Shown: piece after piece, positions 900 through 61,422 of the stretch
Numbering within the stretch: the first letter of the stretch is position 1
Layout of the letters: every line of letters begins with the position of its first letter
Assembly (NCBI GenBank): GCA_965221215.1
Contig: OZ244872.1
Coordinates: forward strand, 907,601 to 971,600
Length of the DNA stretch: 64,000 nt
Source: Candidatus Aldehydirespirator sp.
GTDB taxonomy: Bacteria > Actinomycetota > Acidimicrobiia > Acidimicrobiales > Aldehydirespiratoraceae
Direction of reading: 5' to 3'
Program-made: the position numbers and the translations under genes
The notes under the pieces: generated by a model
Told to the model about the DNA's origin: nothing
The model's database searches: none
What the model saw: only the letters and a program-made list of their open reading frames with translations

Positions 900-1152
900 C
901 AGCGGCGCCGTCTCAGCGGTGGGCTGGTTGGACCGCGACGCTGAAGCGTGCTCGTATGAGCGAGGCTCAGACGGTGCCGGTGAGTTCACTGCCGCCCTCC
1001 GGTGCGGTGCGCGAAGTGTGCCAGGCCTCGGGCTGAGGGCCTTCCGGCGGCGAGCGGGCGCGGCCATCTCCCGACACCGCGTGAGAAGCGTGTCGGTGGC
1101 GTTGGGGGTGTTGCTGGAGGGACGGATGAACCGCGCCCCCTCGACTGGCGCG

Positions 1153-4173: not shown

Positions 4174-4193
4174 TGTCGAATGACTGTCTGCGG

Positions 4194-5942
4194 TTAGTTG
4201 GTGATGGGTGGGGGTTGGCGGATGGGGAGGGTGATCTTGGTTGGGTGGTGGGTGTTGTGCAGGATCGTCTGGGTGGCGGGCGCGGCTGCTAGGGCGCTCT
4301 CGGTTAGGGGGGTTCCGCCGGTGTTGAGGTTGCGGTCCCATTGCGGGAAGTCCGAGCTGGAGATGTCGAGTCGCAGCCGGCTTCCGGCTGCGATGTGGGC
4401 GCCCACCGGCCCCAGGTCGATGCGCAGCTCGTACACCTCGCCCGGCGTCAGCGGCTCGGGATCGCTCAGCGAGTGGCGGTAGCGGGCCCTCAGGATGCCC
4501 TCCTGGAGGTTGACGCTGCGGCCGTCGGGATCGACCACGCACAGCCGGGCGGTGAAGTCGGTGTCGGTGGCGGTGCTGGCCGCGTGCAGCGTCACCGACA
4601 CGTCTCCGAGCAGCTCGATATCGGCGCTCAGCGGCTCCGACGTGTACACGAGGATCATGCGCGACACCTCGGCCTGATGCTGGTCGGCGGGACCCATCGG
4701 CGTGATCGTGTCGAAGCAGCACGAATGGCCGCCCAGGCTGGGGATGGGCACGCCCGGGTCGTAGACGAAGACGTCGGGCGGCTCGTCGCCGGCCGGCACC
4801 CGGTCGAGGGTGCCGTCGCCGAACTTGGAGTTGGCCCGCCCCCGCGAATGGACGTGCCAGTCCTCGGCGGCGGTGTCCGACGGCGGCCAGTCGTCGAGGT
4901 CGCGCCAGCCGCCGTCGAGGGTGAACACCGTCACCGGATGGTCGAGCACGCCGGTGTCGACGCCCCGCAGCGTGTGGTCGAACCAGCGAAGCTGCCAGTC
5001 GTCGATCTCGTTGGTGCTCGGCCCGTCGCCGCTGCAGCGGCTCACCGGCGTCCACGGCATGTGCGTCCACGGACCCACCAGCAGCTTCTGGGCCCCGCGG
5101 GCCGCCTCCGTGCCCGCCGAGGCTCGCAGCCCGGTGAAGTTCTTCACCGTCCCGGTCAAGAACACGTCCCACCAGCCCCCGAAGTGCAGCGCCGGCACCT
5201 CGATGCGGCTGTAGTCGGCGTCGATGCTCCACTGCTTCCAGTAGTCGTCGTAGGTGCAGTGCTCCACCCAGTCGTAGAAGTAGGGGGCATAGCCGCCCTG
5301 CAGCGGCGGGAACTCCGACATGGGCAGCGACCAGAACCAGCCCGCGGCTCCGCCCAGCGCCGCCCCGAGAGCATCGACCGCGGCCCGGTCCTCGGCCCGC
5401 ACCGCCGAGCCCTGGGCCAGCAGGGTGGCCCAATAGCACACGAAGGCGGTGGCCAGCGCTCCGCCGTTGTAGGTCCAGCCGTCGTAGTACTGCGAGGAGG
5501 TGAAGCCCGGCGCGATGGAGCGCAGCGACGGCGGCCTCGTCACCGCGGCCAGCAGCTGGGTGGCCCCCACATATGAGAACCCGAACATGCCCACATCGCC
5601 GTTGGAGCCGGGCAGGGCTGCGGCCCACTCGACCGTGTCGTAGCCGTCGTCCATCTCGTGGGCGAACGGGTAGAAGTCCCCCTCGGAGGTGTAGCGGCCC
5701 CTGGTGTCCTGGATCACCACCATGTAGCCGTGCGACGCATACCACCCCGGGTGGGCGTTGCCGAAGGTGGAGACGTTGACCCGCTTGTCGTAGGGGCTGC
5801 GAGACAGCAGCACGGGCACGCCGTCGGGCGACGGGTCCTCGGGGCGATACACGTCGGCTCTCAGCACGGTGCCGTCGCGCATGGTGGCCGCGACGTCGCG
5901 CTCGACGGTCACCGCCATTCCGGGAAGTTTCTCGATGGTCAT
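4194..5942 (-). CDS. CocE/NonD family hydrolase (S15 X-Pro dipeptidyl-peptidase-like alpha/beta hydrolase)
   Basis: 582-aa ORF. The N-terminus DGTVLRADVYRP...VPVLLSRSPYDKR...GYMVVIQDTRGRYTSEG and the nucleophile elbow MFGFSYVGATQ match the CocE/NonD pattern. Confidence 0.85.
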   Translation of the reverse strand: MTIEKLPGMAVTVERDVAATMRDGTVLRADVYRPEDPSPDGVPVLLSRSPYDKRVNVSTFGNAHPGWYASHGYMVVIQDTRGRYTSEGDFYPFAHEMDDGYDTVEWAAALPGSNGDVGMFGFSYVGATQLLAAVTRPPSLRSIAPGFTSSQYYDGWTYNGGALATAFVCYWATLLAQGSAVRAEDRAAVDALGAALGGAAGWFWSLPMSEFPPLQGGYAPYFYDWVEHCTYDDYWKQWSIDADYSRIEVPALHFGGWWDVFLTGTVKNFTGLRASAGTEAARGAQKLLVGPWTHMPWTPVSRCSGDGPSTNEIDDWQLRWFDHTLRGVDTGVLDHPVTVFTLDGGWRDLDDWPPSDTAAEDWHVHSRGRANSKFGDGTLDRVPAGDEPPDVFVYDPGVPIPSLGGHSCCFDTITPMGPADQHQAEVSRMILVYTSEPLSADIELLGDVSVTLHAASTATDTDFTARLCVVDPDGRSVNLQEGILRARYRHSLSDPEPLTPGEVYELRIDLGPVGAHIAAGSRLRLDISSSDFPQWDRNLNTGGTPLTESALAAAPATQTILHNTHHPTKITLPIRQPPPITN

Positions 5943-38106: not shown

Positions 38107-38892
38107 TCAGAAGAAGACCTGCTCGCCGCCGGTGAGGTTGAGGCTGGCACCGGTCGTGTAGCAGGCGTCGTCGGAGGCGAGGAACGCAGCCATGGCGCCG
38201 ATGTCGGTGGCCGTCCCGAGCCGCTTCAGGGGGATGGTCTCGATGTGCTCGGCCAGCAACTCGTCACGGTCGCGGTCCGCCGAGGCCGCGGCGGCGCCGA
38301 ATCCGGTCTTGGTCATGTTGGTGAACATGGTGCCGGGGCAGATGGCGTTGACGGTGATGTTGTGCTCAGCCAGTTCCTTGGCCAGCACCTGGGTGAGCCC
38401 GACCACCGCGAACTTGGAGGCCGAGTAGATCCCCCATCCCTGCCAGGCCACCTTGCCCGTCTGCGACGCTGTGTTGATGATCCGCCCCCAGCTGTGCCGC
38501 TTCATGATGTGGGCGGCGGCACGCGAGCAGGCCAGCACGCCCCGGACGTTCACCGTGAAGACCTTCTCGTACACCTCGTCGGGGGTGTCGATGACTGCGC
38601 CTATGGGCTGGGCGACGCCGGCGTTGTTGGCCAGGATGTCAAGCCGGCCGTAGGCGTCGGCCACCGCGCGCATCTGCTCTTCGACCTGGGCCGTGTCGGT
38701 CACGTCGAGGTGTATGGCCATGGGCTGGGCCCCCGACGGCGCGGCGGGCAGCGACGCGGCCACTTCGGAGGAGTCGAGCACGTCGGCGCACACCACCGCG
38801 GCCCCCTCGTCGGCGAACCGCCGAGCGATGCCCTCGCCCAGTCCTCGGGACGCGCCGGTCACCAGTGCGATCTTGTCGTCTAGCCGACCCAT
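38107..38892 (-). CDS. SDR family oxidoreductase
   Basis: Start ATG 38892 is preceded by AAGGGGGA. Motifs: TGASRGLG, NNAG and YSASK. The track ORF's extra 48 N-terminal codons cross the intergenic repeats and are rejected. Confidence 0.9.
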   Translation of the reverse strand: MGRLDDKIALVTGASRGLGEGIARRFADEGAAVVCADVLDSSEVAASLPAAPSGAQPMAIHLDVTDTAQVEEQMRAVADAYGRLDILANNAGVAQPIGAVIDTPDEVYEKVFTVNVRGVLACSRAAAHIMKRHSWGRIINTASQTGKVAWQGWGIYSASKFAVVGLTQVLAKELAEHNITVNAICPGTMFTNMTKTGFGAAAASADRDRDELLAEHIETIPLKRLGTATDIGAMAAFLASDDACYTTGASLNLTGGEQVFF

Positions 38893-38968
38893 TCCCGGTC
38901 CCCCTTGCTTGCAGCGAAGCGGACCGCACACTACATCACGGTGCCGATCCGGCAAATTGCCGAGCTTC

Positions 38969-39057
38969 GATGTGCAAATGAGGCAGCCACAAGGGTGTGA
39001 ACGAGATAGTCGAGCATGTGGAAATGAGATGGTCACAGATGTGAAAACGAGATGGGG
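38969..39057 (+). repeat. Four imperfect direct repeats, about 16 bp each at 21-25 bp spacing (iteron/operator-like)
   Basis: TGTGCAAATGAGGCAG (38971), TGTGAACGAGATAG (38996), TGTGGAAATGAGATGG (39017) and TGTGAAAACGAGATGG (39040). All four are in the same orientation in the intergenic region. Confidence 0.75.
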
Positions 39058-39078
39058 ACGCCCGATTTGCGGCCTGAC

Positions 39079-39103
39079 GGGGGGGGGGGGGGGGGGGGGG
39101 GGG
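39079..39103 (+). repeat. Uninterrupted homopolymer G25 (C25 on the minus strand)
   Basis: Counted directly: g at 39079-39103, flanked by ...cctgac and caaaact... Confidence 0.95.
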
Positions 39104-39173
39104 CAAAACTGCGAAGAAACTAAAAATAACGAAAAAGCACTCTAAGGTATTGAGATGAACTAGAATCGGAGGA
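39104..39173 (+). promoter_or_regulatory. AT-rich island with a candidate -10 (TAGAAT 39161-39166) immediately upstream of the ATPase start
   Basis: Hand count gives 25 G+C in 70 nt. TAGAAT ends 7 nt before the A of ATG 39174, geometry compatible with a leaderless or near-leaderless transcript. GGAGG at 39168-39172 is only 1 nt from the ATG. Confidence 0.4.
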
Positions 39174-40277
39174 ATGCCGAAACACCCCTCGGTGAATCCG
39201 TTCTCCCCCACGTTCGGTGCCACGCCCCCTCTGCTGGCGGGGCGTGACCGGATTCTCGACCGCTTCTCCGAGGCGTTGGACACCGGCCCCAACCACCCGG
39301 ACTACACGCTGCTGCTCATCGGCGACGGCGGCACCGGCAAGACGGCTCTGCTCAACGTGCTCGAGGAGCAGGCCGCCGACCGCGGCTGGGCAGTGATCAC
39401 CGCGGCGGCGTCGGCAGAGCCCGTGGCCAAGCGGATCACCGCCGAAGCCCTCAGGCATCTCGATCAGGCCGACGGCGACCGCGCCGAGCGCATCGGTGAG
39501 ACCGAGGACCTCGCATCGTCGGAGTCGTGCTCGCCGTGCAGCCTGCTGACTGCTCTGGGCGAGCTCGGTGCGGTCATGGCCGACAGCGGCAAGGGGCTGC
39601 TGGTGACCGTCGACGAACTCCACGCCACCGATCGCGACGACGTCCGCAACATCGAGGCTGCGATCCAGATCGTCACCCGCCGCCGGCAGATGCCGGTGGC
39701 GTTCGTGGCGGCGGCGCTTCCGGTGGTGGAGGACACCCACCTCGATGACTCCCACGCGACGTTCCTCGAGCGCTGCTCCCGCTTTCGCCTGGGCCCGCTC
39801 GACCCCGATGAGACTCGGCGGGCCCTGCGAGAGCCGATCATCAAGTGCGGCAGCGCCATCGACGACGACGCGCTCGACGCGGCCGCCGACGTCACCCGCG
39901 GGCATCCGTACATGGTGCAACTCGTCGGCTTCCACTCCTGGCAGATGCGCGAAGACCCCGGCACGCCGATCAGCGTCACCCACGCCAGCGCCGGGGCCCT
40001 CGAAGCCGAGGCGGCCATGGTGGACCAGATAGCCAGGCCGATCTGGAAGCGGCTCTCTCCGATGGACCGGCGCTTCCTGGTGGCGATGCTGCCCGGCAAC
40101 CCCGACTCGTCGCTGGCCGACGTGGCCACGAGGTTGGGGCGCTCGGTGCAGTACGCCCGCGTCTACCGGCGCCGGCTGGTGGCCGCGGGCGCGATCAGCC
40201 CGTCGGAGAACGGCCGGGTTCGTTTCTTGCACCAGGCGGTGCGGGTGCGGGCCGAGGCGGCCCAGAGGCAGCAGTGA
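39174..40277 (+). CDS. Orphan AAA+ ATPase with C-terminal winged-helix (ORC/Cdc6- or Arch_ATPase-like, STAND-type)
   Basis: 367 aa. The N-terminus is NPFSPTFGATPPLLAGRDRILDRF, Walker A is LLLIGDGGTGKTALL, and Walker B is GLLVTVDELH. The C-terminal LSPMDRRFLVAMLPGNPDSSLADVATRLGRSVQYARVYRRRLVAAGAI is a wHTH-like pattern. Confidence 0.8.
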   Translation: MPKHPSVNPFSPTFGATPPLLAGRDRILDRFSEALDTGPNHPDYTLLLIGDGGTGKTALLNVLEEQAADRGWAVITAAASAEPVAKRITAEALRHLDQADGDRAERIGETEDLASSESCSPCSLLTALGELGAVMADSGKGLLVTVDELHATDRDDVRNIEAAIQIVTRRRQMPVAFVAAALPVVEDTHLDDSHATFLERCSRFRLGPLDPDETRRALREPIIKCGSAIDDDALDAAADVTRGHPYMVQLVGFHSWQMREDPGTPISVTHASAGALEAEAAMVDQIARPIWKRLSPMDRRFLVAMLPGNPDSSLADVATRLGRSVQYARVYRRRLVAAGAISPSENGRVRFLHQAVRVRAEAAQRQQ

Positions 40278-40332
40278 TGGCAGAGACAGCAGTGCTGAAT
40301 GGTCGGAAGTGCTTGATGCATGCAAAGGAGGA

Positions 40333-43300
40333 ATGGTCTTGCAGTTCTTGAGACGGCGTACAAGTGGGTGGCTCTGCGCCCTGCGGCGCGACGGCGGGCC
40401 CGACTGTTTGCAGAGCCCCCCAAACGTTCGCAGGCTGGTGGCGGTGCTGACCGTGGCGCTGGTCGCGTCGCTGCTGGCGGCGGCGCCGGTGCCGTTGTTG
40501 TCGGATGCGGGAGCGCCGCTAGCGCCGGCTGAGGCTGAGGCGCAGCAGGTCACCTCGCCGGCGGTTCTCAACAGGGTCTCGATCATCGAGGGCCAGACAC
40601 GCATCTTTCGGATCTCCAACGTGACGTCGCGCCCCAGCTATTACGTGCATGCCAGCGTCGCGGGCTCCTTCAGCGCCGAGGCGAGCGACGTCACGATCAC
40701 CACGGACAACCTGCGCGGCCAGGCACAGACGATCACCCCCGACACCGACGCGCCGCGCGCCTACCGAGACTCCATCCACAGCACCATCGGCTTCGAGGTC
40801 ACCGCGAACGAGGACAGCGACGGCACCGGCGAAGAGACGTTCGGGGTGCGGCTGTGCACCACCGCTGACTGTCAGAGCGGCACGGTCCTCGGCGAGTGGG
40901 AGGTGGCCATCACCGAGCCCGGTTCGGACACCGTGCTCACCGGCACGGGCGCGACCGTCACCATCCCTGGCGGCAGCGCGCTCAGCGTCATGGAGGACTC
41001 CCGCAACGGCGACGGCCGCGACCGGCGCGCCACGTTCACCATCGCTCTTGACTCGGCGCCGACCGAGGACATCGTGATCGTCGGCCAGGTGGACACCACG
41101 GCTGCCAACGGAGACGGCGTTGCCACATCGATTGCGCGCATCAACGCGGCGCGCTCTCCCGACGAGGAACCGTCGACCACGGCGCGCTATGTGGCTGCCA
41201 GGTTCTCCAACATGGTCACGGTCACCGACCCCGGGAACCCGAATGCCGATCCGCCCGTGCCCCCGTCCCAGACGACTCGGGCACCGACGGCTGACGAGCT
41301 CGCCACACAGGTCAGCGTTGTCGCGTTCGACAACGCGGTCGACACCGCAGGCGGGACGCTGAGCGGCGATCTCACGTTCACCGTCTACAAGGACAACGAT
41401 CGCTTCCGCGGCACCGGCGCCGACGTCGACGGGAACGGCGATCCCATTCTTGGCAACGCCGAGACGTACCCCGGCATTGTCATCCCCAGCGTGCCGATCA
41501 GGGTCACCGATGACGACGAGCCGACGAGGATCCGGCTGCTGCCCACCAGTCCCGCGGACAACACCGCGACGGAGGGCAACACCGACAAGGCCACGGTCCT
41601 GGTGAAGCTCGACCGTGCGCTGGCCGCGGGCGAGGAGGTCACCGCGACGCTGTTCTTCAGCGGCGCCACGTTGGGCACGCACTTCTCGATGGCGGCGGCG
41701 AGCGGGCAGACCGGCGTGACCTACGCCGACTCCGACGACGGAACAAAGGGGCTCGTCACCCTCACCGGTGCGGGCGTTCAGCAGGGTGTGATCGAGGTCA
41801 CCGCGCTCACCGACAGCGACTCTGACAACCAGGCGCTGCAGATCGGGATGCCGCCGACTGACCAACCCTGGCAGAGGAACTATCACCGCTCGAGCCTCGC
41901 CGGCGGGGTCTGCGCCGCGCACGGCTGCCCGAACCGTCCACAGGGCGACCCCGGCCAGCGCTTCCAGTCGGTCACCCTCGCCGAGTCGGCGGCGGGCCTC
42001 ACAATCATCGAGTCCGATGACCCCGACGCCCGCTGGGTGGTCGAGGGCAACGACTACAGCTACAGCGTCCGGTTGAAGGCGCAGCCGTCGATCGATGTGA
42101 CCGTGGCCACATCGATCGCGTCGGGCGGATCGGTGCAGGCCGGGGCGACGCTCACGTTCACCAACAGCGACTGGGCGATGCCGCAGACGGTGACGGTGCG
42201 TCCCACCGACAACGATCTGGACGAGACGCGGCGGACGCTGACGGTGACCCACGCCTTCAGCGGCGACGCCACGTATGCCGCCCTCGCGGATGTCGCGCAC
42301 GAAATCGGCGTGCTCGATGACGACCCGACCACCATCAACATGGCTGGCGCGGGCGTGAACACCGACGGAACCTCTACCAACATGTCGAAGATCATGGTGG
42401 AGGGCGACGCCAGCCGCGTTGACCGCAGCCTCACTATCGAATTGGGCCGCGCTCTGGTTGAGGACGAGTATGTGCGCGTCCCGCTGCGGGTTGAGGCCGT
42501 CGCCAACGGCAACAATCCGGAGCTCCCGGACGATCCGCCCGACCAAGACGAAGATGACGACCCGCTGCCGAGCGACCTCGACCCGCGGCGCACGGTGGTG
42601 GACAGCTTCCGCGGGCCGCGCGCCAGCGCCAATGTGGCCTGGCCGCCGTATCACAACGATGTCGTGATGACTGCCACCGGCACCGGTGTGACCTATGAGC
42701 ACTCCAACCGCCACACCCCCAATCACATCGGTTTCCGCTATATCGAGTTCCGCGGCGCGGGCGCGCAGACCGCGACGATCGTGGTGCACGCCCGCGGCGG
42801 CTTCGACGACGGCGAGAGCTACGACGAGGCGTTCGCGGTCACCTTCCCCAACGACTTCTACGTCTTCGATGAGGACACCGGCCAGCCGGTCAGCAGCACG
42901 CCGGTGCAGGGCAACCTCGGCGGCGGCCTCGAAGCGCAACCGACCGGCTTGGAGGCCTGGTACGGCATCGCCGACGACGACAAGATCGCAGCGGCGCAGA
43001 CCACCGAGGTGGCCAACAGCTGGTCGGCGAAGCCTCCCAGCTTGAGCGACGGCGCCGAGTTCCGGCTGCTGTATGTCACCAGCGGAACCAGAAACGCCAG
43101 CGAGGACGGCTACGCCACCTACAACAATTTTGTGCGTGCCGAGATCACCGGCAACCAGCTCACACAGGGCGGAGTGCCGGACCTGGTGCCGTACGCCACC
43201 AAATTCGCCGCGGTGATCAGCACCAACTCCTCTCAGGGCGTCCGTGGAGGCAACGCCTCCCTCAACGCCAACCTGGAAGACCCGAGCAACGACGCTGCCA

Positions 43301-46300
43301 TCTACTGGGTGGGCGGAACCAAAGTCGCCGACAACACCGCCGACTTCCTCGACGGCACCTGGGACGACGAGGCCAACCCCACCCGCGCCGACGGCACCGC
43401 GGCCACGATCAGCACGGCCGGCTACTGGACCGGCTCGGAGGCCGACGGCCAGCGCGCCGACAGCTGCAGCGGCCTGACGGGATCTGATCGGCATCTGCGA
43501 GCGGGCGCGACCAATGTCGGCTACGGGCTGCTCAACGACAACGGACGCGGGCCGCTGGGCCAAGCCGTGGACGAGACGAGCTGCCAACCCGCGCCCAACA
43601 GCGAGCGGCGGCCGCTGTATGCGCTGTCCACCGAAGCGTTCACCATCTCCGGCGGCGCCGCCATCGAGCCCGCCGCCACCGCCGCGGAGGGCAGCGCCGT
43701 CACCTTCGCCGTCACCATCACCACAGCCGCGCCCTCCGGCGGGATCACCATCCCCTACACCCTCGCCGACGGACGCGGCTACGACAACGACCCCGCCAAC
43801 ATCATCGCCACCAGCACCGACTACACCGACGCCGCCAGTGGCAGCATCGTGATCGCCCAGGGCGACACGACCGGCACCATCACCGTCAACACCACACAAG
43901 ACAGCACATACGAGAGCGACCACTACTTCACCGTCACCCTCGGTACGCCCACAGGCACCGACGCGCCCCAGGTGCAAGCCCTCAAGGGCACCGCCATCGG
44001 CACGATCACCGACGCCGACGACGCGCCCACCATCGAGTTCGCCCCCGCAACAGCTACAGCCGCCGAAGGCGACGGCACCGTGGATGTCACCGTCACCAAG
44101 ACCGGTGCCACGCTGCTGCCCGCGTCGGTGTACTGGACCACCGCCGACGACACCGCGTCACACCCCGACGACTACACCGCCAACGCCGGCTACCTCCAAT
44201 TCGCCCCCGGCGAAACATCCAAGACCATCACCATCGGCATCGTGGCGGACGGCGCCTCCGAGAGCGCCGAGACATTCAAGGTGCAACTCGACGCGCAGCA
44301 GATCGTCGACGCCCAGATCGGCAGTGCATCTGAGGCGACGGTCACGGTGAACGACGACGGGACCAGCGTCTCGGTGCCGAATGTGCAGTTCACCTCGGCG
44401 ACGCAGGCGGTGACCGAGGCCGCTACCACGCTCACCGTCACGGTCGAGGCGGACGCTGCGGCGCCGGCCAACACGGATGTGGCCTTCACGGTGGGCGGCG
44501 ACGCCACAGCCAGCTCGGACTACACCGCTCCCAGCAGCCCGGTCACCATCCTCGCTGGTCAACGCCGCACCACCATCAGCGTCCCGATCCTGCAGGACAG
44601 CGCAAGCGAGAGCCCCGAGACCATCGTGCTGACGCTGATCGACGGCACGGACTACAACCTCGGCTCGCAGACCACCCACACCATCACCATCAACGACGAC
44701 GATTCGTCGCCGATTGTGGAGTTCGCCTCCGCCGCCTCCAAGGGCAGCGAGGGCAACTCCGCCGTGGTCACCGTCGAGGCTTCCCGCCCGGTGGCACAGA
44801 ACACGGCCGTGACCTACACCAGCACCGGGGGGACGGCGACATCCGGCGACGACTACACCGCGCCCGGCGGCACCGTCACCATCCCGAGCGGCCAGAGCAC
44901 CGCTGCCATCACCATTCCCCTGACCGCGGACAGCATGGACGACTCCGGCGAGACCATCGTGCTGACTCTGACCGACGGCACGGACTACGACCTCGGCTCG
45001 CAGACCACCCACACCGTCACCATCTCGGAGGTGGGGTTCATCTTCACGCAGGAGCGCGTCTTCGTGACCGAGGGCGGTTCGGCGGTGCGCTACGGCATCT
45101 CTCTCACCGACGACCCCTCCGGCCTCAATACGGCGCTGCCCGCGTGCGACTACATTCTCGGCACCGACGAGGACAATCCGGTCGACCTGCCGCGCTGCAC
45201 CCCCGACCAGGATCCCGTCTTCGCCCGGGTCATCGTCACCTCGCCGGTCGCGCCCGCTCCGCCGGCGGCCAACCCCAACCCGTTCGAGGTGCTGACCAGC
45301 GGCAACGACCTGCTCCCCACGCTGCGATTCACCCGCCGCAACTTCCACATCCCGCAGTACTTCACCGTCTACCCGCTACAGGACGACGACCCCGACAGCG
45401 AGCAGAACGTGCGCATCACCCACGAGGTCCGCGGCGCTACGGACGATTCCGCCGACTTCCGCGACGACTCGCCCTATGCCACCGGCGGCAGCGTCAATGG
45501 CGTCGACACCGGCCTCGCAGTGCCCGACATGCCCGCCTACGTCTCCGACGACGACGCCGGTCACAAGGAGGGGCTGACGCTGCGACTTCTTGACAAAGAC
45601 CCCGACCTCCCGATCGTCATCCAGGAGGGCAACAAGACCGGCAGGTTCAATCTGGAGTGGCGCGGCCCCACCCTGGGCGGGGATGACGAAGTGGCGGCGC
45701 GTCTGCGTATCACCGGCGGCACGTACGGCAAGGACTACATCGTCGATGCGGAGAGCACCTCTAGTCCAAGGGTCACCTTCGAGCTGCCTATCGACGACGA
45801 ATCCACAATGGATGTGGACGAGTCACACGTCGAGAACGCGGAGATCATCATTCGATGGTTGGCCCCGTTCGGGCGTGTTCCTAGTGCCCAATTCAGAGTC
45901 GTGTCTCTCAGTGACGGCAAGGCGAAGAGCGGTGAACGCCACCTGGGTGTCCATCTTCTGAATGCATGGTCGCCAGACGATTCCGCCAACAAAGACAACG
46001 ACACCCCCGACGGTGTCCGCTTGGAGAACGGTCCCCAGACCAAGCGCATCCATGTCCTCTCCCGTGACCGGATAGTCGTTCGACAGACCGGTACGGAGGA
46101 TGGCTTGAAGTTCGAAGGTTTGGAGACCTCCGGCAGCGATGCCGAGCTCACGACCAACGGCGCGTGGGCGGCCGTTGATGAGGACGGGAGCACGGAACAC
46201 AAGCTCGCATTTGAGATGAGCAGTTGTGTCTTGCCCCGTACTAGCGCCGTGGTGACCGTCAGCACGAGCGACAGCTCCAAGCTGCGCGTCCATGCCAGCG

Positions 46301-49300
46301 ACGACATTGATGGCGTCGTCGACACGCTTACGTGGGGGCCGAACAACAACCCAGAAGGCCGCTGCGGTGAGGTTCACACCGTCAGCTTCATCGCGGATGA
46401 GGACGACGACTCCGACGACGAGGTGGTGGAGGTCTACGTCACCCTAACGAGCGGATATGGGAACGCTTACGTTGACGGCACTGTTGTGCGGACGTTCGAG
46501 GTGCGCATCACCGACGACGACGTGCCCGCAGGCGTGACGGTCTTCCCCACGGCCATTACGGTGCGCGAGGGCGCGAAGAAGGGCGCGAAAGTGGGCGAAG
46601 GCGACCCGCGTGAACGCACCAACCAGGTCGCCTTCAAACTGAACACCGACCCGGGCAGCGGCAACACGGTGCTGATCAACACCCGCGGCGGCGGAATGGC
46701 TGTCCAGAGGGACAAGAGCCAGCACCCCATGGAGTTCACCGGCGGCGAGTCCGGCACCTGGGACACATGGCAGTTTGTTGACATCACCGCGATGGACGAC
46801 AATGACAACGCCGACGACGCAGAAACCGTCAAATGGAGCGTGACAGGCACAGGCGATTACGGGAGCGTGCGCGACCTCAGTGTGGAGGTCACCATCATCG
46901 ACGATGATCCCGCCGTGCGCATCTCCAGGGAAACCATCACGATGGCTGAGCCCCATGTCGAGTCCAGCAGGGCGACAGGGTGGACTTATGAGGTTGTGCT
47001 CAACGTGAAGCCCCACAATGGGATCGTCCATGTTGTGCCCGCCACCGGCGATACCACGGCCGTGAGCTTCGGCAAAAATGACGATGGTCCGATCCTCACC
47101 CACAGGGGCCTGGACTTCACCCCCGAGAACTGGGACGCGCCGCAGACCGTAACCATCTTCCCGTTGGCTGACGGCGACTCCGACGACGAGACCGTCACCA
47201 TCACGCACTCCATCTCCAGCCAGGTCACCCGCACCATCACGAACGAGGATGGAACACCAGCGCAAGTTGGAGCGGCGCGCAACTACCGGCGTGTGTCTGT
47301 GCCGTCTATCGAGGTGAGCGTGCTGGACTCCGACCGCGCCGAGGGGATCGTGGTCGAGCCGGATGCGTTCGTGTCAGAGGGGGGCAGCGGCGGGTTCCCT
47401 GTGCGGCTGGCCGCGCCCGATGCCGTCAGTTTGGTTGTGACGGGCACCCACAGCGGTGTCGTCGTCGACACCGATCCCAGCCTCGACGGAGAGCAGCGGA
47501 CGCTGGTGTTCACTGAGGAGAACTGGTATGAGCCCCAGGCTGTCTTTTTGACGGCCGAGCAGGAGAGCGATAGCAGCGACACCGACGACGGCGTGTTCGA
47601 TTTGACTTTGACCGCCTGGACCGCTGGCGCGCCCGCCGAGGTGGGTCAACCGCCGAATCCTCCGGTGCTTGCCTCGGCCTATGGGACGGCGCCGGTGCGG
47701 GTGCATGTGTACGACGACGAGTTCGCGGGCGGGTCGACGTTCACCGTGACTGGGTCGAGCACGGTTACTGAGGGTGCCGCTCCCGCCATCTTCACCGTGC
47801 AAGCAGACACCGCGTCGTCCGTCGCGGTCGATGTGACGCTGCACATCTCAGAGACCGGCGATTTCGTCGCCGGCGGCGATGAGGGAGACCAGACCGTCGC
47901 CTTCAGCGGCGGCTCCGCCGTCCAGAACCACCAGGTCCCCATCGTCGACGACAATCTGCAGGAGTCTGACGGGACGATCATTGCGGAGCTCAAGCCGGGC
48001 AGCGGCTACCGGATCGGATCGCCGTCGCGGGCGTCTGTCGGCGTCACCGACGACGGCGACACCGGCACCGCGGCGCCGGTACGCATCACGATGGCGGTGG
48101 CCGACGGCGACACGTCCACGGGCGATGTAGTTGAGGGCGCGGGCGACTCCACGGGCTACAAGACGGTCACGTTGACGCTGGATCGGGCCCTGACCAGCGG
48201 CGAGACGGTCACCGTGCCCCTGACGGTCTCGGGCGCAGCGGTGACAACGGATTACACCTTCGGCCTGCACGGCTCCGGGAACACTGGCGTCACGCTGGCC
48301 ACGAGCGGGTCGTATAGCGCACAGAACCCGGCGGTGCAGTTCGCCAGCGGTGCGAGGGTCGCGACGCTGCGGTTCACGCCTGTAAACAACGACGACCGCA
48401 CGCAGCCCGCGATCGATATCCGCATCGGGACGGTCGAGGCGTCGGCCGGCATCACCCACACGACGGCCGGTTCGCCCGTCGGCTTCTTGATCCGCGACGA
48501 CGAGATGGGCGTGATCGAGGTGCCCCGCACCTGGGCGCTCAAGCCCTCGGGGGTGGGCGCCGGCGGGGAGTTCCGGCTGCTGTTCATCACGTCGGAGACG
48601 AGGACGGCCGAGTCGACCGACATCGAGGCATACAACGATTGGGCGCAGGGCGTGGCGGCGCGCAACGGGCATGTCTCCCTGAAGCCCTACGGCGGTTTGC
48701 TCAAGGTGGTCGGCAGCACCGAGTCGGTGAACGCCCGCGTGAACACGGGCATGTGGGATCCGAACACGAGCGGGTTCGTGGACGGCTCCACGGGCAGGTC
48801 CTCTTCTGGCGTTCGGGTCTATTGGCTGGCTCCGGCGTCAGCGGCGAAGGTGGCCGACAGCTACTTCGAGTTCTTCAGCCATCCCTGGGACGGCGGCACC
48901 CATCAGGACACTCGCGACACGCTTGAGTCCGGCATCGCGCGGGACAGCGGCAGCGCGATCTGGACCGGTTCGAACACGAACGGCACGGCTCACTCGGCGC
49001 CGCTCGGAGGCAACGCGCAGAACTGGGTGCGCACGGGCCATGCAATGACCGCGGGCGGTGCTACTACCAACTTGTCTCGAGACAGGGCCACCAAGACCGG
49101 CACCCTGCCCCTCTATGTGATGTCGCCGGTGTTCCGGGTGGAGGGCGCCGAGGCCGAGTTGAGCATCTCTGGCGGGACGGTGGCAGAGGGCGGCACGCTG
49201 ACGGTGACTGTTGATCTCAGCGCGGCGGCGCCGTCGGTGCTGAACATCCCAGTGCAGATGCGCACGAGCGGCAACCCGACTGCGTCGTCAGCCGATTTCT

Positions 49301-52300
49301 CGCTGTCGAACAGCGGCAATGTGGCTATCGCTATGGGCGCCACATCGGGCACCCTGACGTTCACCGCTGAAGACGACATGATCGATGAGGACTCCGAGAC
49401 GCTGACTCTGGAGTTCGGGACGCTGCCCGACGGCGTGATCGCGGGCACGACCTCCAGCGTCGGTGTGACGATCACCGACAACGACACTGCGGGTGTGACC
49501 GTTGCTGAGACGTCGGGCGGTACGACAGTGTCGGAGGACGGCTCGACTACGACTGACACGTACACGGTGGTGTTGGATACTGAGCCGTTGAACAATGTGG
49601 TGGTGACGGTTACTGCGCCGGCGGGGACGCAGGTCAGCACCGACAGCGGCTCGACATGGCACTCGTCGCGAAACCTCACGTTCAACCCGTCGGGGTCGGG
49701 GATCTGGTCGTCGCCGCAGACGGTGACGGTGCGCGGCCAGAACGACGACATCGACAATGCCGGCGATGAGCGCACGATCAGTGTCACGCATGCGATCACC
49801 GATGGTGACGGCAGCAAGTACACCACGTCGACGCCGAGCATCGCGGCGGTGTCGGTGACGGTGACCGACAATGACACGGCCGGAGTGACGGTGGTGCAGT
49901 CGGGAGGGAACACGGTTGTCGCTGAGAACGGCGGCACGGACACGTACACGGTGGCGTTGGACACGCAGCCGCTCTCGAACGTGGTGGTCACGCTCACGAG
50001 CGGCGCGTCGACGGCGGCGTTGTTGAGCGGGGGAGGGCAGACGAATCAGGGCACGGTGACGCTGACCTTCACGCCGACCAGTTGGGGCGCGCAGACGGTG
50101 ACCGTGCGGGGCGTGAACGACGCCATCGACAACGCCAACGACCGCCGAACGGTGACGATCACCCAGTCGGTCACGACGGGCGACACGAACGGCAAGTACA
50201 CCACCAGCACCAACGTGGCGAACGTGAGCGTGAGGGTCAACGACGACGGCGACACGGCGGCGGTGACTGTCACTCCGAGCGGCGGCACAACGACCGTGAC
50301 CGAGGACGGCAGCGACACCGACGATTACACGGTAGTGCTGGACACGCAGCCGCTGAGCAGTGTGACGATCACGGCCACGGCGCCGGCGGGGGCGCAGGTC
50401 AGCGACGACGGCGGCACGTCGTGGGGGTCGTCGGTGGATCTGACGTTCACGTCGGGCACGTCGGGCAACTGGGGCACGGCCCAGACGGTGACCGTGCGGG
50501 GCACGCAGGACATCATTGACAATCCGGGCGACCAGCGCAGCATCACCATCACCCACGCGATCACTTCTGGCAACGGCGACGGGAGCCGCTACACGCCGTC
50601 GACGCCGTCGAAGCCGAGCGTGGCGGTGAGGGTGAACGACGACGACCCGAAGCCGACACAGATCACCTTGACCACGAACCGCAACACTGCGGTGTCGGAG
50701 GGCACGGCGTCGACCATGGTGACGGTTACCGCGACAGTGCAGGGCCCGACGCGCTTCGGCGCCGACAAGACGGTGGCGGTGAGCGTCGACGCCAGCGCCG
50801 ACGTTAATGGCGGCGCCAACTATGTGGACATGACCGCGGTGGCTGATTTCAACATCACGATCCCGGCGGGCGATCGGACTGCGACAGGGATGTTCACCAT
50901 CACGCCGGACAACGACATGGTGGACGAGTCCGACAACAGCATTGCGGTGACCGGCAGCGTGTCGGGGGACTCGGCGGTGACGGTGAACCCGGCGACGCCG
51001 ATCATGCTGAGGGACAACGACAATGCGCCGACAGTGGTGAATCTGAGTGTGACGCCGAACTCGATCAGCGAGAACGGCGGCGCTCGGAGCATCTCGGTGA
51101 CCGCGACAGTGCAGGGCTCGACCCGGTTCGGGACAGACAAGACGGTGGCGGTGTCGGTGGCGGGCCACAACGCGGCGGGCGCGGTGGGGTTCACCCAGGT
51201 GTCGACGTTCAGTGTGGTGATCTCCGCGGAGCAGCAGACGTCGTCGGGCAGCGACAGTTTCACGCTGACTCCCGACAACAACATCTGGAACGAACAGGAC
51301 GGCTCGGCGGTGCTCAGCGGCACGTTGTCGGGGGTGACGGTCAACGGTGCGAGCGTGACGTTGACCAACGACGATGCCGAGCCGCCGGGGGTGACCCTGT
51401 CGGTGAGCGACGAGATGATCGGCGAGGCCGACGGGGCTCAGACGATAACGGTGACCGCGACGGTGCAGGGCGCGACGCGCTATGGCACGGCGCGCACGGT
51501 GAACGTGAGCGTGGCAGCTTCAGGCAACGCGGATGCGGTGGACTTCACCGCTTCGACGCCGATGGCGATCATGCTGGCGCCGGGTGACCGCACCGCAACG
51601 ACGACGTTCACGCTGACGCCGACCGCCGACAGTGTGGACGAGTTCGACGAGACGATCACGGTGTCGGGCACGGGAGCGGACATCGCGGCGTTCACCGATG
51701 CGTCGATCACGCTGGCCGACGACGACGCGACCACCCTCACGATGACTGCGCCCGCGGGTGCGGTGGCTGAGAGCGGCGGCACCACCGACGTGACGCTGAC
51801 GCTGAGCCGGGCGCTGGTGGACGGCGAGTCGGTGACGGTGCCGCTGGATGTGGTGGGAGCGGCGGCAAGATCCGATTACACGCTGGGGTTGCAGCCGTCG
51901 TCGCAGACTGGTGTGGCGCTGTCTGTATCGGGCTCTGACAGCGTCCAGGCGCCCAAGGTGACTCTGACCACCGGCGCTGAGACCGCGGTGATGCGGTTCA
52001 CCGCGGTTGATGACAGCACCCGCACCCAGCCGTATGTGCTGGTGCGCTACGGCACCGGGGCCCGGGCGCCGTCGGGCGCGGGCGTGGATTTCGCGGCGCC
52101 GGCGGATGGGCCGGTGGGCTGGGTGATCACCGACAACGAGACCGGCGACATTGTGGTGCCGCAGTCTTGGGCGCTGTCGCCCAGCGGTGTGCAGAATCAG
52201 GGCGAGCCGAGGTTCCGGCTGGTGTTCGTGTCGTCGGCGAAGCGCGACGCCTCCTCCACAGACATCGCCGAATATGACGCGTTCATCCGCGGCCTGCTCG

Positions 52301-55300
52301 CGCAGGGGCACACTGCGGTTGTTCCCTATGCGGGGTTCTTCACCGTTGTGGGGTCCACCTCGGGCGTGCATCTGAGGGACCACGCGAACGTGGCGGGATC
52401 TGCGACGATGCCGTTCTATTGGCTGGGCGAGACCGGAGACACCACCAAGCGGGTCGCGGTGGACAACAGCCAGTTCCGCGGCGAGTGGATCGACACCGAG
52501 ACGCCGTCTTCGCAGAGCGTGCCCCGCAACGAGTCCGGCGCCGTGGTGTCGGTCGACAGCAACGGCTATTTCACCGGATCCACCGCCGCGGGGGCGCGGT
52601 CGGCCAATCCGCTGGGCTCGACGAACGTCACGGTCGGCTATCTCAACGACAGCGGCAGCGGCCGGGCGCCGCTGGGCAGCGGCCAGACGGTCGCCAACAC
52701 CGCCACGCGCAGCTTCTACGGGCTGTCGCCGGTGTTCGTGAGGGCCAGCGACCCTGTCGTCTCGGTGACCACATCGCAGACGTCGGTGGCTGAGGGCACC
52801 GCTTTGAGCTTCACCGTGAGCGCCGACCCCGCGCCGCCCAACGCGATAACAGTGCGGTTGTGGGTCTCGCAGAACTCCGGGCGCGACATGGTGCCCGTCG
52901 TCGGGGAGCAGATGGTGGCGTTCGCGGCGGGCGACACCTCCAAGACGCTCACGGTGGCCACTGCCGGCGACAACAGCGACGAGGCCGACGCCGAGGTGTC
53001 GGCGAGAGTGTTGAACAACGCCGGCTACACGGTGAGCGCCACCGCCGCCGAGGCGTCGGTGACAGTCACCGACAACGACGCCATGACCGTGTCGGTGTCT
53101 GGCGGCGGCGGAAGCGTGAGCGAGGGATCGAGCCGCGACTACACCGTCGATCCGGGCCGCAGCCTGTTGTCGGGTGAGACGGTGACGGTGAACTTCGCTC
53201 CGGCGGGCAGCGCCACCCGGGGCTCGGACTACACGATCACCTGCCACGGCACAGGCGTGACCTGCGCGGGCCTGGGCGGCACCACACCGAGCTTGACCAT
53301 CACTGGCGGCAGCGGCGTGCGCAACGCCACCATCCGCATCAACGCCCAGAACGACATGGTGCATCCCGAGTCCGGCGAGACCGCCGGGATCAGCCTGCGC
53401 TCAGGGCATGCCAGCACAGGCTCGGGCGGCACGTTCTCGGTGAGCGGCTCACCGTCGACGTTCACCATTGCGAGCACCGCCCCCGCCGCGATCACCGCGT
53501 CGTTCGATTTGGCCGCCTACGGGGTGGGGGAGGCGGCGGGTGCCCGCTCGGTGCCGGTGACGCTCTCGCGGGTTGCGCCCTCGGGTGGGCTGGTTGTGTC
53601 CTACACCACCGGCGGAGATGCGGTCTCGGGCGACGACTACAGCGGCGCGGGCGGCACGGTGACCGTCGCGGCGGGCCAGACCTCAGCGAGCATCTCTTTC
53701 ACGGTCATCGACGATGTATTGGCTGAGGGCGCTGAGACCTTGACGTTCACCCTCACCGACGGCGCGAACTACGACCTGGGGTCGCCGAGCCAGACCACGA
53801 TCACGATCAACGACAACGACATCGCCCCCTCCAGCATCACTTTGGGCGTTGACGACAACAGTGTGAACGAGGCCGACGGCGCGACGACGGTCACCGTGAC
53901 TGCCACCGTCAGCGGTTCGACACGCTTCGCGGAGTCCAAGACGGTGGCGGTGACGGTGGCGGGGTCGGGTGCCGCCAACACGGTGGGGTTCACTGCGAAC
54001 CCGTCGATGTTCAACATCACCATCGCCGCTGGCGCGCAGACCGGGACCGGCATGTTCACGCTGACCCCCACCGACAACAGCGTCGACGAGAACAACGAGA
54101 CGGTCACAGTGTCGGGAGCGCTGTCGGGGGTCACGGTGAACTCTGCGACGATCACCCTCATAGACGACGACACGACCGTGGCGACGCCGGTCACGGTCAC
54201 CTTGTCGGCGCCGGCGGGCGACGTCACCGAGGGCGCTAGCGGCGCCGCCGGACGCAAGGACGTCACGATCACCCTGGGTCGAGCGCTGGCCGGCACTGAG
54301 ACAATCACGGTGCCGCTGGAGGTGTTCGGCGCCACCGTCGCCACCGACTACAGCTTCGGGCTGCAGCCCGCCACCCAGGCCGGGGTGGCGCTTCTCACTT
54401 CGAACCCGTACAGCGCTCAGCATCCGGCGGTGCGCCTGTCGGCGGGAGCGTCGAGCGCGGTGCTGCGGTTCATGCCGGTGAACAACAGCGTGCGCACCCA
54501 GCCTCTTGTGACGATCAACAGGAACTCCAGTCATCAGACCACCGGTGGGGGCGGCGCGACGTTGGGGGCGGTGTCGGGCGGCCCGTTCAAGTTCTTGGTC
54601 ATCGACGACGAGACCGGCGATATCACCGTGCCGAGCAGTTGGGCGCTGGCCCCGTCGGGGCTGTCGGCGGGCGACGACTTCCGGCTGCTGTTCCGCTCCT
54701 CGACGACCCGCGACGCCACATCGTCGAACATCGCGGACTACGACTTCTTTGTGCGCGACGTGGTGGCGTTGGGCGGCCATAGCGCGGCGCTGCCCTATGC
54801 GGGGTTCTTCAAGGCGTTCGCGTCGACCCGCAGCGCCTCGGGCTCGACGGGCACCACCGCCCGGGTGCACAACAACATGGCCTCGGGCCACACCGGTCAC
54901 TTCAGCGGCGCGAACGACGTGTGGGCCGACGGATCCACCGTCCCCAACGCAGGCAACACGACGGGGACGCCGATCTATTGGCTAAACGGCGCCAAGCTCG
55001 CCAACAACTACGCCGACCTGTGCGACCAAGCCTTGAAGTCGGGCAGCGGGGTCACCACCGGCTGGGATCTCGACGACCCCCGCAGCGAGGACGGAAACCG
55101 CAACATTGCGGCGGGAACGAACCCCGGTCAGACCCATCAGGCATGGACCGGCACCGGCAACGCCTGCGAGGCCTACAACCACCCCCTCGGCGGCGACAAC
55201 AACGGCGACGTCTCGCGTGCCGCCAGCCACGACACGACCTGGGCGTTCATGCACCAGGCCCAAAACGCTCGATCACAGCAGCGGCCCCTCTATGGCATGT

Positions 55301-59292: not shown

Positions 59293-61422
59293 GTGAACGG
59301 TCCGGCAGTGCTGCGGTACGGGGAGTGGCCGTCGCCTGTGGCCGCCGATTGCCTGGCGCAGGGGGCGGCCGGCATCTCCGAGGTGATCGCCGATCCGGTG
59401 CAGCCCTGGCTGCTGTGGTGGGCCGAGAGCCGCCCAGACGAGGGTGGGCGCACCGTGGTGGTGTGCCGCGACCGGCGCGGTGGCGGGCCCCAGGAGGTAA
59501 CCCCGCCCGACGCCAACGTGCGCACTCTGGTCCACGAGTACGGCGGCGGCGCCTGGTGGCCCTGCGACGGGTCGCTCACCTACGCAGAGTTCACCGACCA
59601 GCGGCTCCGCCGGATCGACCGTCCCGGCGCCGAGCCGCAACTGCTCACCGCCGAGCCGCCCGAGCCCAGGGGGTGGCGCTACGCCGACGGGCGGGTCACA
59701 CCAGACGGCTGCTGGAGCGTGTGCGTGCGTGAGCGCCACGACACCGGCGGCGAGCCGGCCAATGAGTTGGTGGCCGTGGCCTGCGACGGCTCGCAGCAAG
59801 TGGTTCCGCTGTGGTCGGGAGCGGACTTCGTGATGGCGCCCCGGGTGTCGCCCGACGGCTCGATGCTGGCCTGGATCTCCTGGGACCACCCCAACATGGG
59901 TTGGGACGCCACCCGGCTGCATGTCCACGAGTTCGCCGACGCCCGGCTGGGAGCGGAGCTGCTGGTGCTGGGCCGCGACGGCGACCGCAGCCTGTGCGAG
60001 CCCGGCTGGGTGGCCGGATCGCGGCCGAGGCTGCTGGTGTGCAGCGACCACGAAAACTGGTGGGGCCTCTACGAGGCAGACCTCGACGGCGGGCCGCTGC
60101 GGCCGGTGGTGACCGGCGAATTCGATGTGGCCACCCCGCCCTGGGTATTCGGAATGCAGCGCTGGGCCGCAACTGGCGCCAACGTCGCCGCGGCTCCGAC
60201 CTCATCCGAGGGTCAAGTCGCGGTGGGCGAAGCTCAGACCAGATCATGCGGTGAAGTCGCGGTGGGCGAGGCTCAGACCAGATCATGCGGTGAAGTCGCG
60301 GTGGGCGAGGCTCAGGCCGGATCTGACGACCAAGTCACGGTGGCTGTGGCGGCTCAGATGGGATCGGGCGATCGGATCCTGGTCGACGGCCGGCCGGTGG
60401 CGGTGGCCGACTCGTCGGTGTCGTCGCTGACCATCGGCCGCGACGCAGACGGCGCGGCGGTGCTGGCCTACGCGGGCGCCGGCTACCGCCATGAGCCTGT
60501 GGTCGCCGCAGTGCGCATCGGCCGCGACGGCCGAGCCGACCGGCGCGCCGTGCGGCCCGCTCGGGAGCTGGGCTTCGGCGAGGGCCTGCTGATGGAGCCC
60601 GAGGCCATCACCTTCCCGACCGGCGACGGCACCGCGGTGGCCCACGCCCTGTACTACCCGCCCGCCAATCCGGCCTGCACCGGCCCGGCCGGTGAGCGGC
60701 CCCCGCTGCTGGTCACTGCCCACGGAGGACCCACCGCCGCGGCCCGCCGCCAGCTCCAACTGGGCCTGGTGTACTGGACCTCCAGAGGCATCGCGGTAGT
60801 GGACGTCGACTACCGGGGCTCCACCGGCTACGGCCGCAGCTACCGCCGGGCCCTCGATGGCGCCTGGGGGGTGGCCGATGTGGAGGACTGCGTGGCCGCG
60901 GCCCGATACCTGGCCGACCGGGGCGACGTCGACGCTGAGCGGCTGATCATCCGGGGCGGCAGCGCCGGCGGCTTCACCGTGCTGGCCGCCCTGGCCGGCC
61001 ACGACACATTCGCGGCCGGGGCCAGCCGCTACGGCATCGCCGATTTGGAGGCCCTGGCCGCTGACACCCACAAGTTCGAGTCGCGCTACCTCGACCGTCT
61101 CGTCGGCCCCTACCCCGAAGCCGCAGACATCTATCGATCCCGCTCGCCCATCCATCACATCGACGGCTTCGACGCGCCCATGATCGTGTTGCAGGGCAGC
61201 GAGGACGAGATCGTGCCCCCCGCCCAGTCCGAGATGATCGTGGACGCGCTCAAGGCCAAGGGCGTGCCGGTGGCCTATCTGCTGTTCGAGGGAGAGCAGC
61301 ACGGCTTCCGCCGCGCCGACAACATCGTGGCCGCCCTGGAGGCCGAGTTGGCCTTCTTCGGCCGGATCCTCGGATTCACCCCCGCCGACCCGCTCCCCGA
61401 CCTGGAGATCTTCGGCCTATAG
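59293..61422 (+). CDS. S9 family serine peptidase (prolyl oligopeptidase/dipeptidyl aminopeptidase-like)
   Basis: 709 aa with a GTG start. The N-terminal part is propeller-like. The C-terminal alpha/beta hydrolase has the nucleophile GGSAGGF, then D in QGSEDEIVP and H in GEQHGF. Confidence 0.85.
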   Translation: MNGPAVLRYGEWPSPVAADCLAQGAAGISEVIADPVQPWLLWWAESRPDEGGRTVVVCRDRRGGGPQEVTPPDANVRTLVHEYGGGAWWPCDGSLTYAEFTDQRLRRIDRPGAEPQLLTAEPPEPRGWRYADGRVTPDGCWSVCVRERHDTGGEPANELVAVACDGSQQVVPLWSGADFVMAPRVSPDGSMLAWISWDHPNMGWDATRLHVHEFADARLGAELLVLGRDGDRSLCEPGWVAGSRPRLLVCSDHENWWGLYEADLDGGPLRPVVTGEFDVATPPWVFGMQRWAATGANVAAAPTSSEGQVAVGEAQTRSCGEVAVGEAQTRSCGEVAVGEAQAGSDDQVTVAVAAQMGSGDRILVDGRPVAVADSSVSSLTIGRDADGAAVLAYAGAGYRHEPVVAAVRIGRDGRADRRAVRPARELGFGEGLLMEPEAITFPTGDGTAVAHALYYPPANPACTGPAGERPPLLVTAHGGPTAAARRQLQLGLVYWTSRGIAVVDVDYRGSTGYGRSYRRALDGAWGVADVEDCVAAARYLADRGDVDAERLIIRGGSAGGFTVLAALAGHDTFAAGASRYGIADLEALAADTHKFESRYLDRLVGPYPEAADIYRSRSPIHHIDGFDAPMIVLQGSEDEIVPPAQSEMIVDALKAKGVPVAYLLFEGEQHGFRRADNIVAALEAELAFFGRILGFTPADPLPDLEIFGL
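60214..60330 (+). repeat. 39-bp (13-aa) in-frame tandem repeat, about 3 units plus a degenerate 4th, inside the S9 peptidase propeller region
   Basis: caagtcgcggtgggcgaagctcagaccagatcatgcggt (60214-60252); gaagtcgcggtgggcgaggctcagaccagatcatgcggt (60253-60291); gaagtcgcggtgggcgaggctcaggccggatctgacgac (60292-60330). Together they encode (Q/E)VAVGEAQTRSCG. Confidence 0.9.

Follow-up and report, generated by a model that had tools for sequence, protein, structure and literature searches.

The window, the whole 64,000-nt stretch of Candidatus Aldehydirespirator sp. analysed here, contains 25 consecutive G residues without interruption at positions 39079–39103 of the (+) strand (C25 on the (−) strand), and this tract, G25, is most likely an unusually long case of an ordinary phase-variation repeat rather than an assembly error. 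We are confident that G25 is a real tract and consider it probable, a step less firmly, that its length varies within the population. For the lineage there is good support for slipped-strand hypermutability, which is likely at G25 too; a simple repeat of this length is expected to mispair often by strand slippage. Both flanks are unique sequence (GGCCTGAC on the left, CAAAACTG on the right), and the start codon of an ATPase gene (ATG at 39174) lies 71 nt downstream of the end of the tract, which puts G25 at −71 to −95 relative to that codon. A sequence-only reading of this DNA had reported the run, its unique flanks, its distance from the ATPase and its position between a repeat array and an AT-rich island, all of which the letters of the window confirm.

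The first gene downstream (39174–40277, (+) strand) encodes a 367-aa AAA+ ATPase with a Pfam AAA_16 domain, a weak nSTAND1 match and a C-terminal winged helix. Its predicted structure (pLDDT 84.7) was most similar in the PDB to the Pyrococcus Walker ATPase 2qen, followed by Orc1/Cdc6 and RuvB, while a sequence search against the PDB returned no relative. The protein is thus modelled as an AAA+ module with a C-terminal winged helix in an Orc1/Cdc6-like architecture, and it is a reasonable candidate for a reader of the spacer repeats described below. PADLOC gave no match, and we rejected its assignment as a known defence protein. Beyond it lies the gene for a giant secreted surface protein of 5479 aa with many Calx-beta domains and C-terminal SLH domains (40309–56748, (+) strand), so that the ATPase and 16-kb surface-protein gene named by the earlier reading are both borne out. 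The likely start of the giant gene is ATG 40333 or TTG 40339, downstream of AGGAGG; it begins approximately 60 nt past the ATPase stop, with its own Shine-Dalgarno site and approximately 1.2 kb from G25. A terminator scan between the two genes found none, and their co-transcription is plausible. On the far side of the spacer a divergent short-chain dehydrogenase (SDR) gene occupies 38107–38892 on the (−) strand, in synteny with the related locus L001. Further along the window, positions 60211–60343 hold 3.4 copies of a 39-nt unit at 89–94% identity (GGTGAAGTCGCGGTGGGCGAGGCTCAGACCAGATCATGC).

The SDR and ATPase genes are separated by a 281-nt intergenic region that holds G25 and two sets of repeats. 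The distal array (38970–39064, (+) strand) consists of four degenerate units of approximately 23 nt (GTGnAAAyGAGATgG...), three of which contain the motif AWYGAGATR (at 39000, 39023 and 39046). Abutting G25 on its other side is a proximal A-rich region (39104–39160, (+) strand) of approximately two degenerate 18–19-nt units (AAAAnTnnCGAAnAnnC), which is typical of the ATPase family; the 70 nt downstream of G25 are 36% GC and 49% A, against 69% GC for the window. A fourth AWYGAGATR (39149–39157) closes the A-rich region just before the predicted −10 hexamer. This motif occurs six times in the window, counting both strands, and four of these occurrences are in the spacer, on either side of G25. 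The predicted −10 hexamer, TAGAAT (39161–39166, (+) strand), ends 7 nt before the ATPase ATG. A strict sigma-70 scan near G25 found no canonical promoter and no terminator, and the promoter call therefore rests on comparison with homolog loci, in which a TAnnnT hexamer ends 6–8 nt before the start codon in 25 of the 25 closest. A hexamer this close to the start codon is the arrangement expected of leaderless actinobacterial mRNAs, and the placement of TAGAAT would imply that the ATPase mRNA is leaderless. G25 is separated from TAGAAT by 57 nt, including the A-rich array, and so lies outside any −35/−10 spacer. On the SDR side, we read by eye a putative promoter, TTGCCG-16 nt-TAGTGT (38928–38955, (−) strand), in a part of the spacer that is conserved with the nearest relative. 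An Rfam search of the spacer found no known RNA element, the only hit being a sub-threshold rdlD match inside the ATPase gene.

The length of G25 falls far outside what chance would give. Elsewhere in the 64 kb there are only two runs of at least 7 of any base, G10 (1656–1665) and G7 (14403). We pooled the window with 79 related loci (1,036,446 nt) and found that G/C run counts drop by a factor of 0.19 per extra base, reaching 28 runs at length 7 and 0 at length 8. Past this point there is a separate tail of long G/C runs, at lengths 9 (one), 10 (two), 12 (three), 14, 15, 17 (two) and 25 (one). Geometric extrapolation over the 1.04 Mb predicts 0.011 runs of at least 12, of which 8 were observed, and 3.6e-12 runs of at least 25, of which there is one. 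No A/T run in the pool is longer than 8. Because counts decay geometrically to length 7 and are then followed by a separate tail with far too few runs expected, long G:C tracts are a distinct feature class in this lineage, and chance is ruled out for G25. At 25 nt it exceeds the 12–17 nt range known for the tracts of relatives, going approximately 50% past the longest of them.

The G10 run is itself a second long G:C tract of the window. Read as C10 on the coding strand (1656–1665, (−) strand), it lies in frame (..APGPPPRK..) within a ResIII / Type III-restriction-like ORF of 1530 aa (1153–5745, (−) strand), and it is a candidate frameshift switch of this restriction enzyme. Long tracts in the window are therefore associated with both a surface-exposed protein, the giant gene, and a restriction-type gene, the ResIII ORF, and the same association is found in the related loci L002, L004, L014 and L016.

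To place the spacer in context we considered the family of the ATPase and its upstream regions. Approximately 200 homologs were found, nearly all in Acidimicrobiia MAGs named Poriferisodalis, Poriferisocius and Aldehydirespirator; matching families have been placed among the sponge-symbiont clades studied in PMC11706023, which also describes an enrichment of defence systems in sponge-symbiotic Actinobacteriota. GC content averages 44% over the 70 nt preceding the start codon in the 25 closest homolog loci, against 65% for the whole loci. A tandem array is present in the 200 nt upstream of the ATPase homolog (loci L002–L080) in 61 of 75 segments, compared with 11 of 70 controls, and its period is mostly 18 nt (36 loci), otherwise 19 or 9 nt. 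The repeat sequence differs from clade to clade (CGAAAAGACGAATAAAAG, GTGAGAGGAAGTGAGAAA, AAATATTCCGCAGAAAGC and others), and in the 25 closest loci the array appears to extend to the leaderless-type promoter. They resemble sets of operators or iterons, particular to each clade, for an Orc1/Cdc6-like protein. The AT-rich island of the window, which we had considered as possible foreign DNA, is a normal upstream region of the ATPase family and is kept in the nearest relative. We likewise discarded the idea that a G/C run is a conserved upstream part of the family, as such runs occur at 5 loci against 5.9 expected. Two to three paralogs of the family are present per genome. At L014/L081 the ATPase homolog adjoins a McrB-like AAA_5 gene (904–3630; L081: 922–3648; PADLOC PDC-M26A, 2e-36), and a hicA/hicB-like pair, read by eye, lies beside it (5281–5757). 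Considering these neighbours and the restriction genes of L002 and the window, ATPase-family genes seem to sit in variable, defence-rich neighbourhoods.

The nearest relative is a single population represented by two assemblies, L001 and L003, whose ATPase is 95% identical at the amino acid level. A genome scan for other assemblies of the window's own population returned only this relative, the best protein match being 95% identical; exact-protein look-ups with the ATPase and SDR of the window found no record in the public collection, and a metagenome scan for both G25 flanks with a 5–35-nt gap gave 0 matches. In L001/L003 the SDR, ATPase and giant gene (5424 aa) are in identical order and orientation, and the DNA is collinear with the window at 93.8% identity up to 38968 and 86% from 39105. 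Between these points, the 136 nt that comprise the 23-nt repeats and G25 (38969–39104) align weakly to 79 nt, and AAGGTCGA occupies the position of G25; neither a G tract nor the 23-nt repeats are found there. The proximal A-rich region is kept in both assemblies, and the fourth AWYGAGATR is kept in L003. Since the tract and repeats are absent from L001/L003 and the block is barely alignable, we infer that both are young and not conserved, and that they occupy the one fast-evolving part of the spacer, between conserved core promoter regions. A mobile element or MITE ending in poly-G was rejected as the source: the 110-nt block upstream of G25 has no second copy in the window or in 80 related loci, and the 136-nt block is therefore not a repeated mobile element. 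Alignment to L003 resumes exactly past G25, and tracts coincide with breakpoints of strain-specific DNA.

The giant protein has diverged from its L001/L003 ortholog far more than the ATPase has. Comparing window 40309–56748 with L001:6118–11103 and L003:7118–13099, we found approximately 50% amino acid identity over the first 1574 residues, against 95% for the ATPase. Some later segments of the gene reach 90% DNA identity at shifted offsets. The comparison suggests that the giant protein evolves in a mosaic or domain-shuffled manner, and its fast divergence would fit an exposed surface protein under diversifying pressure.

Tracts of 12–17 nt recur in sponge-symbiont Acidimicrobiia, circular MAG contigs included, and are placed as is typical of contingency loci. 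The genes around them were called from ORF lists and Pfam, as GC3-based calling was too crude in the lower-GC loci. At L004 a G14 lies between a perfect TTGACA and the sole −10-like hexamers, AAATAT (18-nt spacer) and TATACA (21-nt spacer), a few nt upstream of the ATG of a signal-peptide protein (TTGACA-aga-G14-aaaaTATACA, L004:12300–12343). The related contig L005 (12248 onward) is 97% identical to the upstream part of L004, and the homology ends exactly at the L004 G14. At L016/L083 two tracts 270 nt apart, C15 (11302–11316, 15 nt) and C17 (11575–11591, 17 nt), lie approximately 60–75 nt and approximately 335 nt upstream of a gene for a 1124-aa SLH/fn3 surface protein; this gene is convergent with an ATPase homolog (P0015), which a second contig also carries. 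At L014 the part of a Calx-beta gene (1221 aa) that encodes the N terminus contains a G12, and the A-rich array of the adjacent ATPase homolog has a C12 44 nt upstream of it. This ATPase-upstream tract of L014/L081 is C on the ATPase-sense strand, a geometry unlike that of G25 in the window. An Illumina-type Aldehydirespirator MAG contig (L011:1–108) begins approximately 30 nt short of the site expected for the L014/L081 tract, and the homopolymer may have broken the assembly there. At L002 a G17 (3104–3120, (−) strand) stands at the junction of two ORFs in different frames, one PD-(D/E)xK nuclease-like and the other a ResIII / Type IIG-like helicase (PADLOC 1e-84), and either G16 or G19 would merge them into one protein. 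The G17 represents an 'off' allele, or else an error in the consensus of the homopolymer. Shorter runs (9–12 nt) in L013, L049 and L079 lie upstream of ordinary genes, such as LigD-like and CoxM-like genes, and these may be meaningless.

Length polymorphism between strains was directly visible at two of these tracts. Two conspecific circular MAG contigs, each from a separate sample, encode the ATPase of L014 (P0029): L081 (2.818 Mb, approximately 150x) and L082 (2.834 Mb, 196x), which share 96.2% identity over 11 kb. The 311-nt region upstream of this ATPase is 100% identical between them but for a C12 (L081:5870–5881) in place of a C15 (L082:5867–5881), and this site is the positional counterpart of G25. 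In the Calx-beta gene, the G12 of L081 (11148–11159) keeps signal peptide and protein body in the reading frame of the start codon, whereas with the G14 of L082 (11787–11800) the start codon is out of frame and a stop follows after 30 codons; the gene caller had shifted the L082 start accordingly. Differences of 2–3 nt are unlikely to be consensus error at such coverage. The pattern carries the signature of slipped-strand phase variation, and the G12 and G14 alleles are naturally occurring on and off states. Scanning metagenomes for the L081/L082 tract gave 0 matches. The sequence-only reading had proposed that tract length be compared across strains: equivalent tracts do differ in length between L081 and L082, while at the G25 site itself only a presence/absence difference was found, L001/L003 being without the tract. 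Its description of G25 as a plausible slipped-strand hotspot beside a surface-protein gene gains from these kindred polymorphic tracts (C12/C15 and G12/G14) and from those in restriction genes (the window C10 and the L002 G17).

We weighed several other accounts of G25. That it marks a chimeric join, with two unrelated contigs fused through a poly-G k-mer, had been raised by the earlier reading on account of the change in composition, and the abrupt GC drop right after G25 is the sole point in its favour. Such an AT-rich stretch is normal for the family, as the base composition of the 25 closest loci and the arrays in 61 of 75 segments show. We consider the join refuted and leave it next to no probability, because the genes on both sides, their order and their orientation agree with those in an independently assembled genome of the nearest relative, and both flanks align to a single contig of it (94% DNA identity on the left and 86% on the right). 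The same conserved synteny, showing that the flanks belong together, weighs against the proposal that the tract is in truth far shorter or does not exist, whether through two-colour poly-G, a consensus error or a gap encoded as G. The two-colour poly-G artefact appends G at the 3′ ends of reads only; G25 is internal to at least 64 kb and gives way to unique sequence on either side, which, by our reasoning, reads with poly-G at their 3′ ends cannot yield. Similar tracts are moreover found in circular, high-coverage MAG contigs with names suggesting long-read assemblers, at meaningful positions and with the frame kept in several genes, and the second G:C tract of the window is in frame within its gene. 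An artefact of this kind would be favoured by the lack of a second assembly supporting G25 (the look-ups and the metagenome scan being empty), by a length well past that of any tract in relatives, and by the ordinary sequence at its position in the closest relative; on balance we judge it improbable.

The main rival accepts that G25 is real and unstable and takes it to be a neutral product: slippage would have lengthened it unchecked in a spacer, free of constraint, between two divergent promoters, and the tract would be tolerated because selection acts on nothing there. The tract is missing in the closest relative, where the 136-nt block of repeats and tract barely aligns between flanks that are 86–94% identical, and G25 is outside the −35/−10 spacer of a family-typical regulatory region that is complete without it. 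G/C runs are also not enriched upstream of the ATPase family (5 against 5.9 expected), and some shorter tracts in relatives adjoin housekeeping-type genes (LigD-like, CoxM-like). However, pure long homopolymers decay fast without selection, and G25 is still G at 25 of 25 positions. The run spectrum is bimodal, with lengths 8–11 nearly absent and 12–25 present, and so lacks a neutral tail. Most tracts of at least 12 nt in relatives are at sites where length matters, and the ATPase-upstream counterpart has been retained at the same site in two strains, differing in length alone. With these points on both sides, neutral expansion seems unlikely but deserves real weight. A further reading gives G25 a length-independent role as non-B DNA, a quadruplex or an intramolecular triplex formed under negative supercoiling, which would act as a structural insulator or supercoil sensor between the divergent promoters. 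The 25 G would formally allow a quadruplex (at least four runs of at least three G in a short stretch), the tract does lie between divergently transcribed genes, and the L014/L081 tract is likewise midway between divergent genes, the hicA-like gene and the ATPase. Elsewhere in the lineage, tracts are in coding regions or promoter spacers and are better explained by slippage, and the strand orientation of tracts relative to genes is inconsistent, so we give the structural reading little credence.

We prefer to read G25 as a real tract that has expanded recently and is prone to slippage, belonging to the long G:C tracts by which contingency loci of sponge-associated Acidimicrobiia are marked, and as grading transcription of the ATPase and giant genes through spacing; we put this reading as a whole at just under an even chance. 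Replication slippage would frequently change the length of G25, and each change would alter the distance and helical phase between the distal 23-nt array and the proximal array, the fourth AWYGAGATR and TAGAAT. The spacer repeats would serve as protein-binding sites, probably for the ATPase itself, and altered spacing would produce graded rather than strict on/off transcription of the leaderless ATPase gene. Read-through from the ATPase could then grade expression of the 16-kb Calx-beta/SLH gene. Several observations count against a regulatory role: the nearest relative has neither tract nor repeats, G25 is outside the core promoter, G/C runs show no family-wide enrichment, the L014/L081 geometry differs, and the giant gene is approximately 1.2 kb from G25 with its own Shine-Dalgarno site. 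That G25 length has a measurable effect on expression is accordingly a tentative proposal, which we would not yet favour. More speculative still, and in our view doubtful, is a lineage-wide phasome of 12–25-nt G:C tracts tuning giant S-layer-anchored Calx-beta adhesins and restriction enzymes. Here an Orc1/Cdc6-like AAA+/winged-helix autoregulator would have two operator arrays, and G25, variable in length, would set the distance between them, giving graded, heritable and reversible display of the 5479-aa protein to sponge host and phages.

Simple repeats have long been known to drive phase variation of surface and restriction genes, GC-rich Bordetella and other Actinomycetota being among the examples; a tract of 25 nt is towards the upper limit for bacteria. 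To our knowledge, Actinomycetota are without MutS/MutL mismatch repair. Treponema pallidum, a spirochaete with a small genome, has poly-G tracts of variable length in its tpr promoters, where they precede the transcription start of genes for outer-surface proteins and modulate transcription rather than frame; those tracts are shorter than G25 and near the core promoter. There is a likeness in principle to the fim2, fim3 and fimX genes of Bordetella. There, too, a long G:C homopolymer in a GC-rich genome precedes a gene for a surface structure and falls within its promoter region, outside the ORF. The Bordetella tract varies in length between strains and sets the transcript level by spacing within the promoter; C-stretch length has been reported to set fim transcription, and the fim3 C-stretch is listed at 13–22 nt (PMC1891110). 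The layout differs. In Bordetella the homopolymer lies between the BvgA activator site and the −10, whereas G25 is 57 nt upstream of the predicted −10, beyond the A-rich array, with candidate motifs on both sides of it, and the first downstream gene is here a regulator-like ATPase instead of the surface gene.

The lineage also resembles the phasome species Campylobacter, Neisseria, Haemophilus and Helicobacter, with their poly-G/C contingency loci (e.g. PMC6321876, PMC5084427). Each of their genomes has many G:C tracts, mainly in surface-protein and restriction-modification genes, at 5′ coding or promoter positions. Those bacteria show frameshift on/off alleles, as this lineage does, and are cultured, host-associated Proteobacteria or Campylobacterota, mostly AT-rich or of moderate GC, with tracts of 8–13 nt. 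Here, in contrast, the bacteria are uncultured sponge-associated Acidimicrobiia with 69% GC and a 25-nt tract. Homopolymer switches within the phylum include the pilus poly-G switch of Bifidobacterium breve (PMC9187656) and the homopolymeric-tract variants of Mycobacterium tuberculosis (PMC11898584). Here, too, G/C slippage yields reversible variants that affect surface structures; the tracts are short (approximately 7–11 nt) and in coding regions, whereas G25 is longer and intergenic. Our literature search found no report of such tracts in Acidimicrobiia or sponge symbionts.

G25 is most likely not a misassembly, and its stated length is best taken as a population mode. The lineage-wide pattern of tracts and the natural on/off alleles are more useful results than G25 alone. 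Simple-repeat phase variation has been worked out almost wholly in cultured pathogens, and it is met here in uncultured, GC-rich sponge symbionts, where the tracts are attached to gene classes expected to matter in a sponge, i.e. giant surface proteins (host recognition, phage receptors) and restriction systems. If this reading is true, tract-length profiling of existing long-read data would be a cheap route of study, 'frameshifted' surface and restriction genes in MAG annotations of these lineages would reflect biology rather than error, and the symbiont populations within one sponge would be mosaics of surface and defence states.
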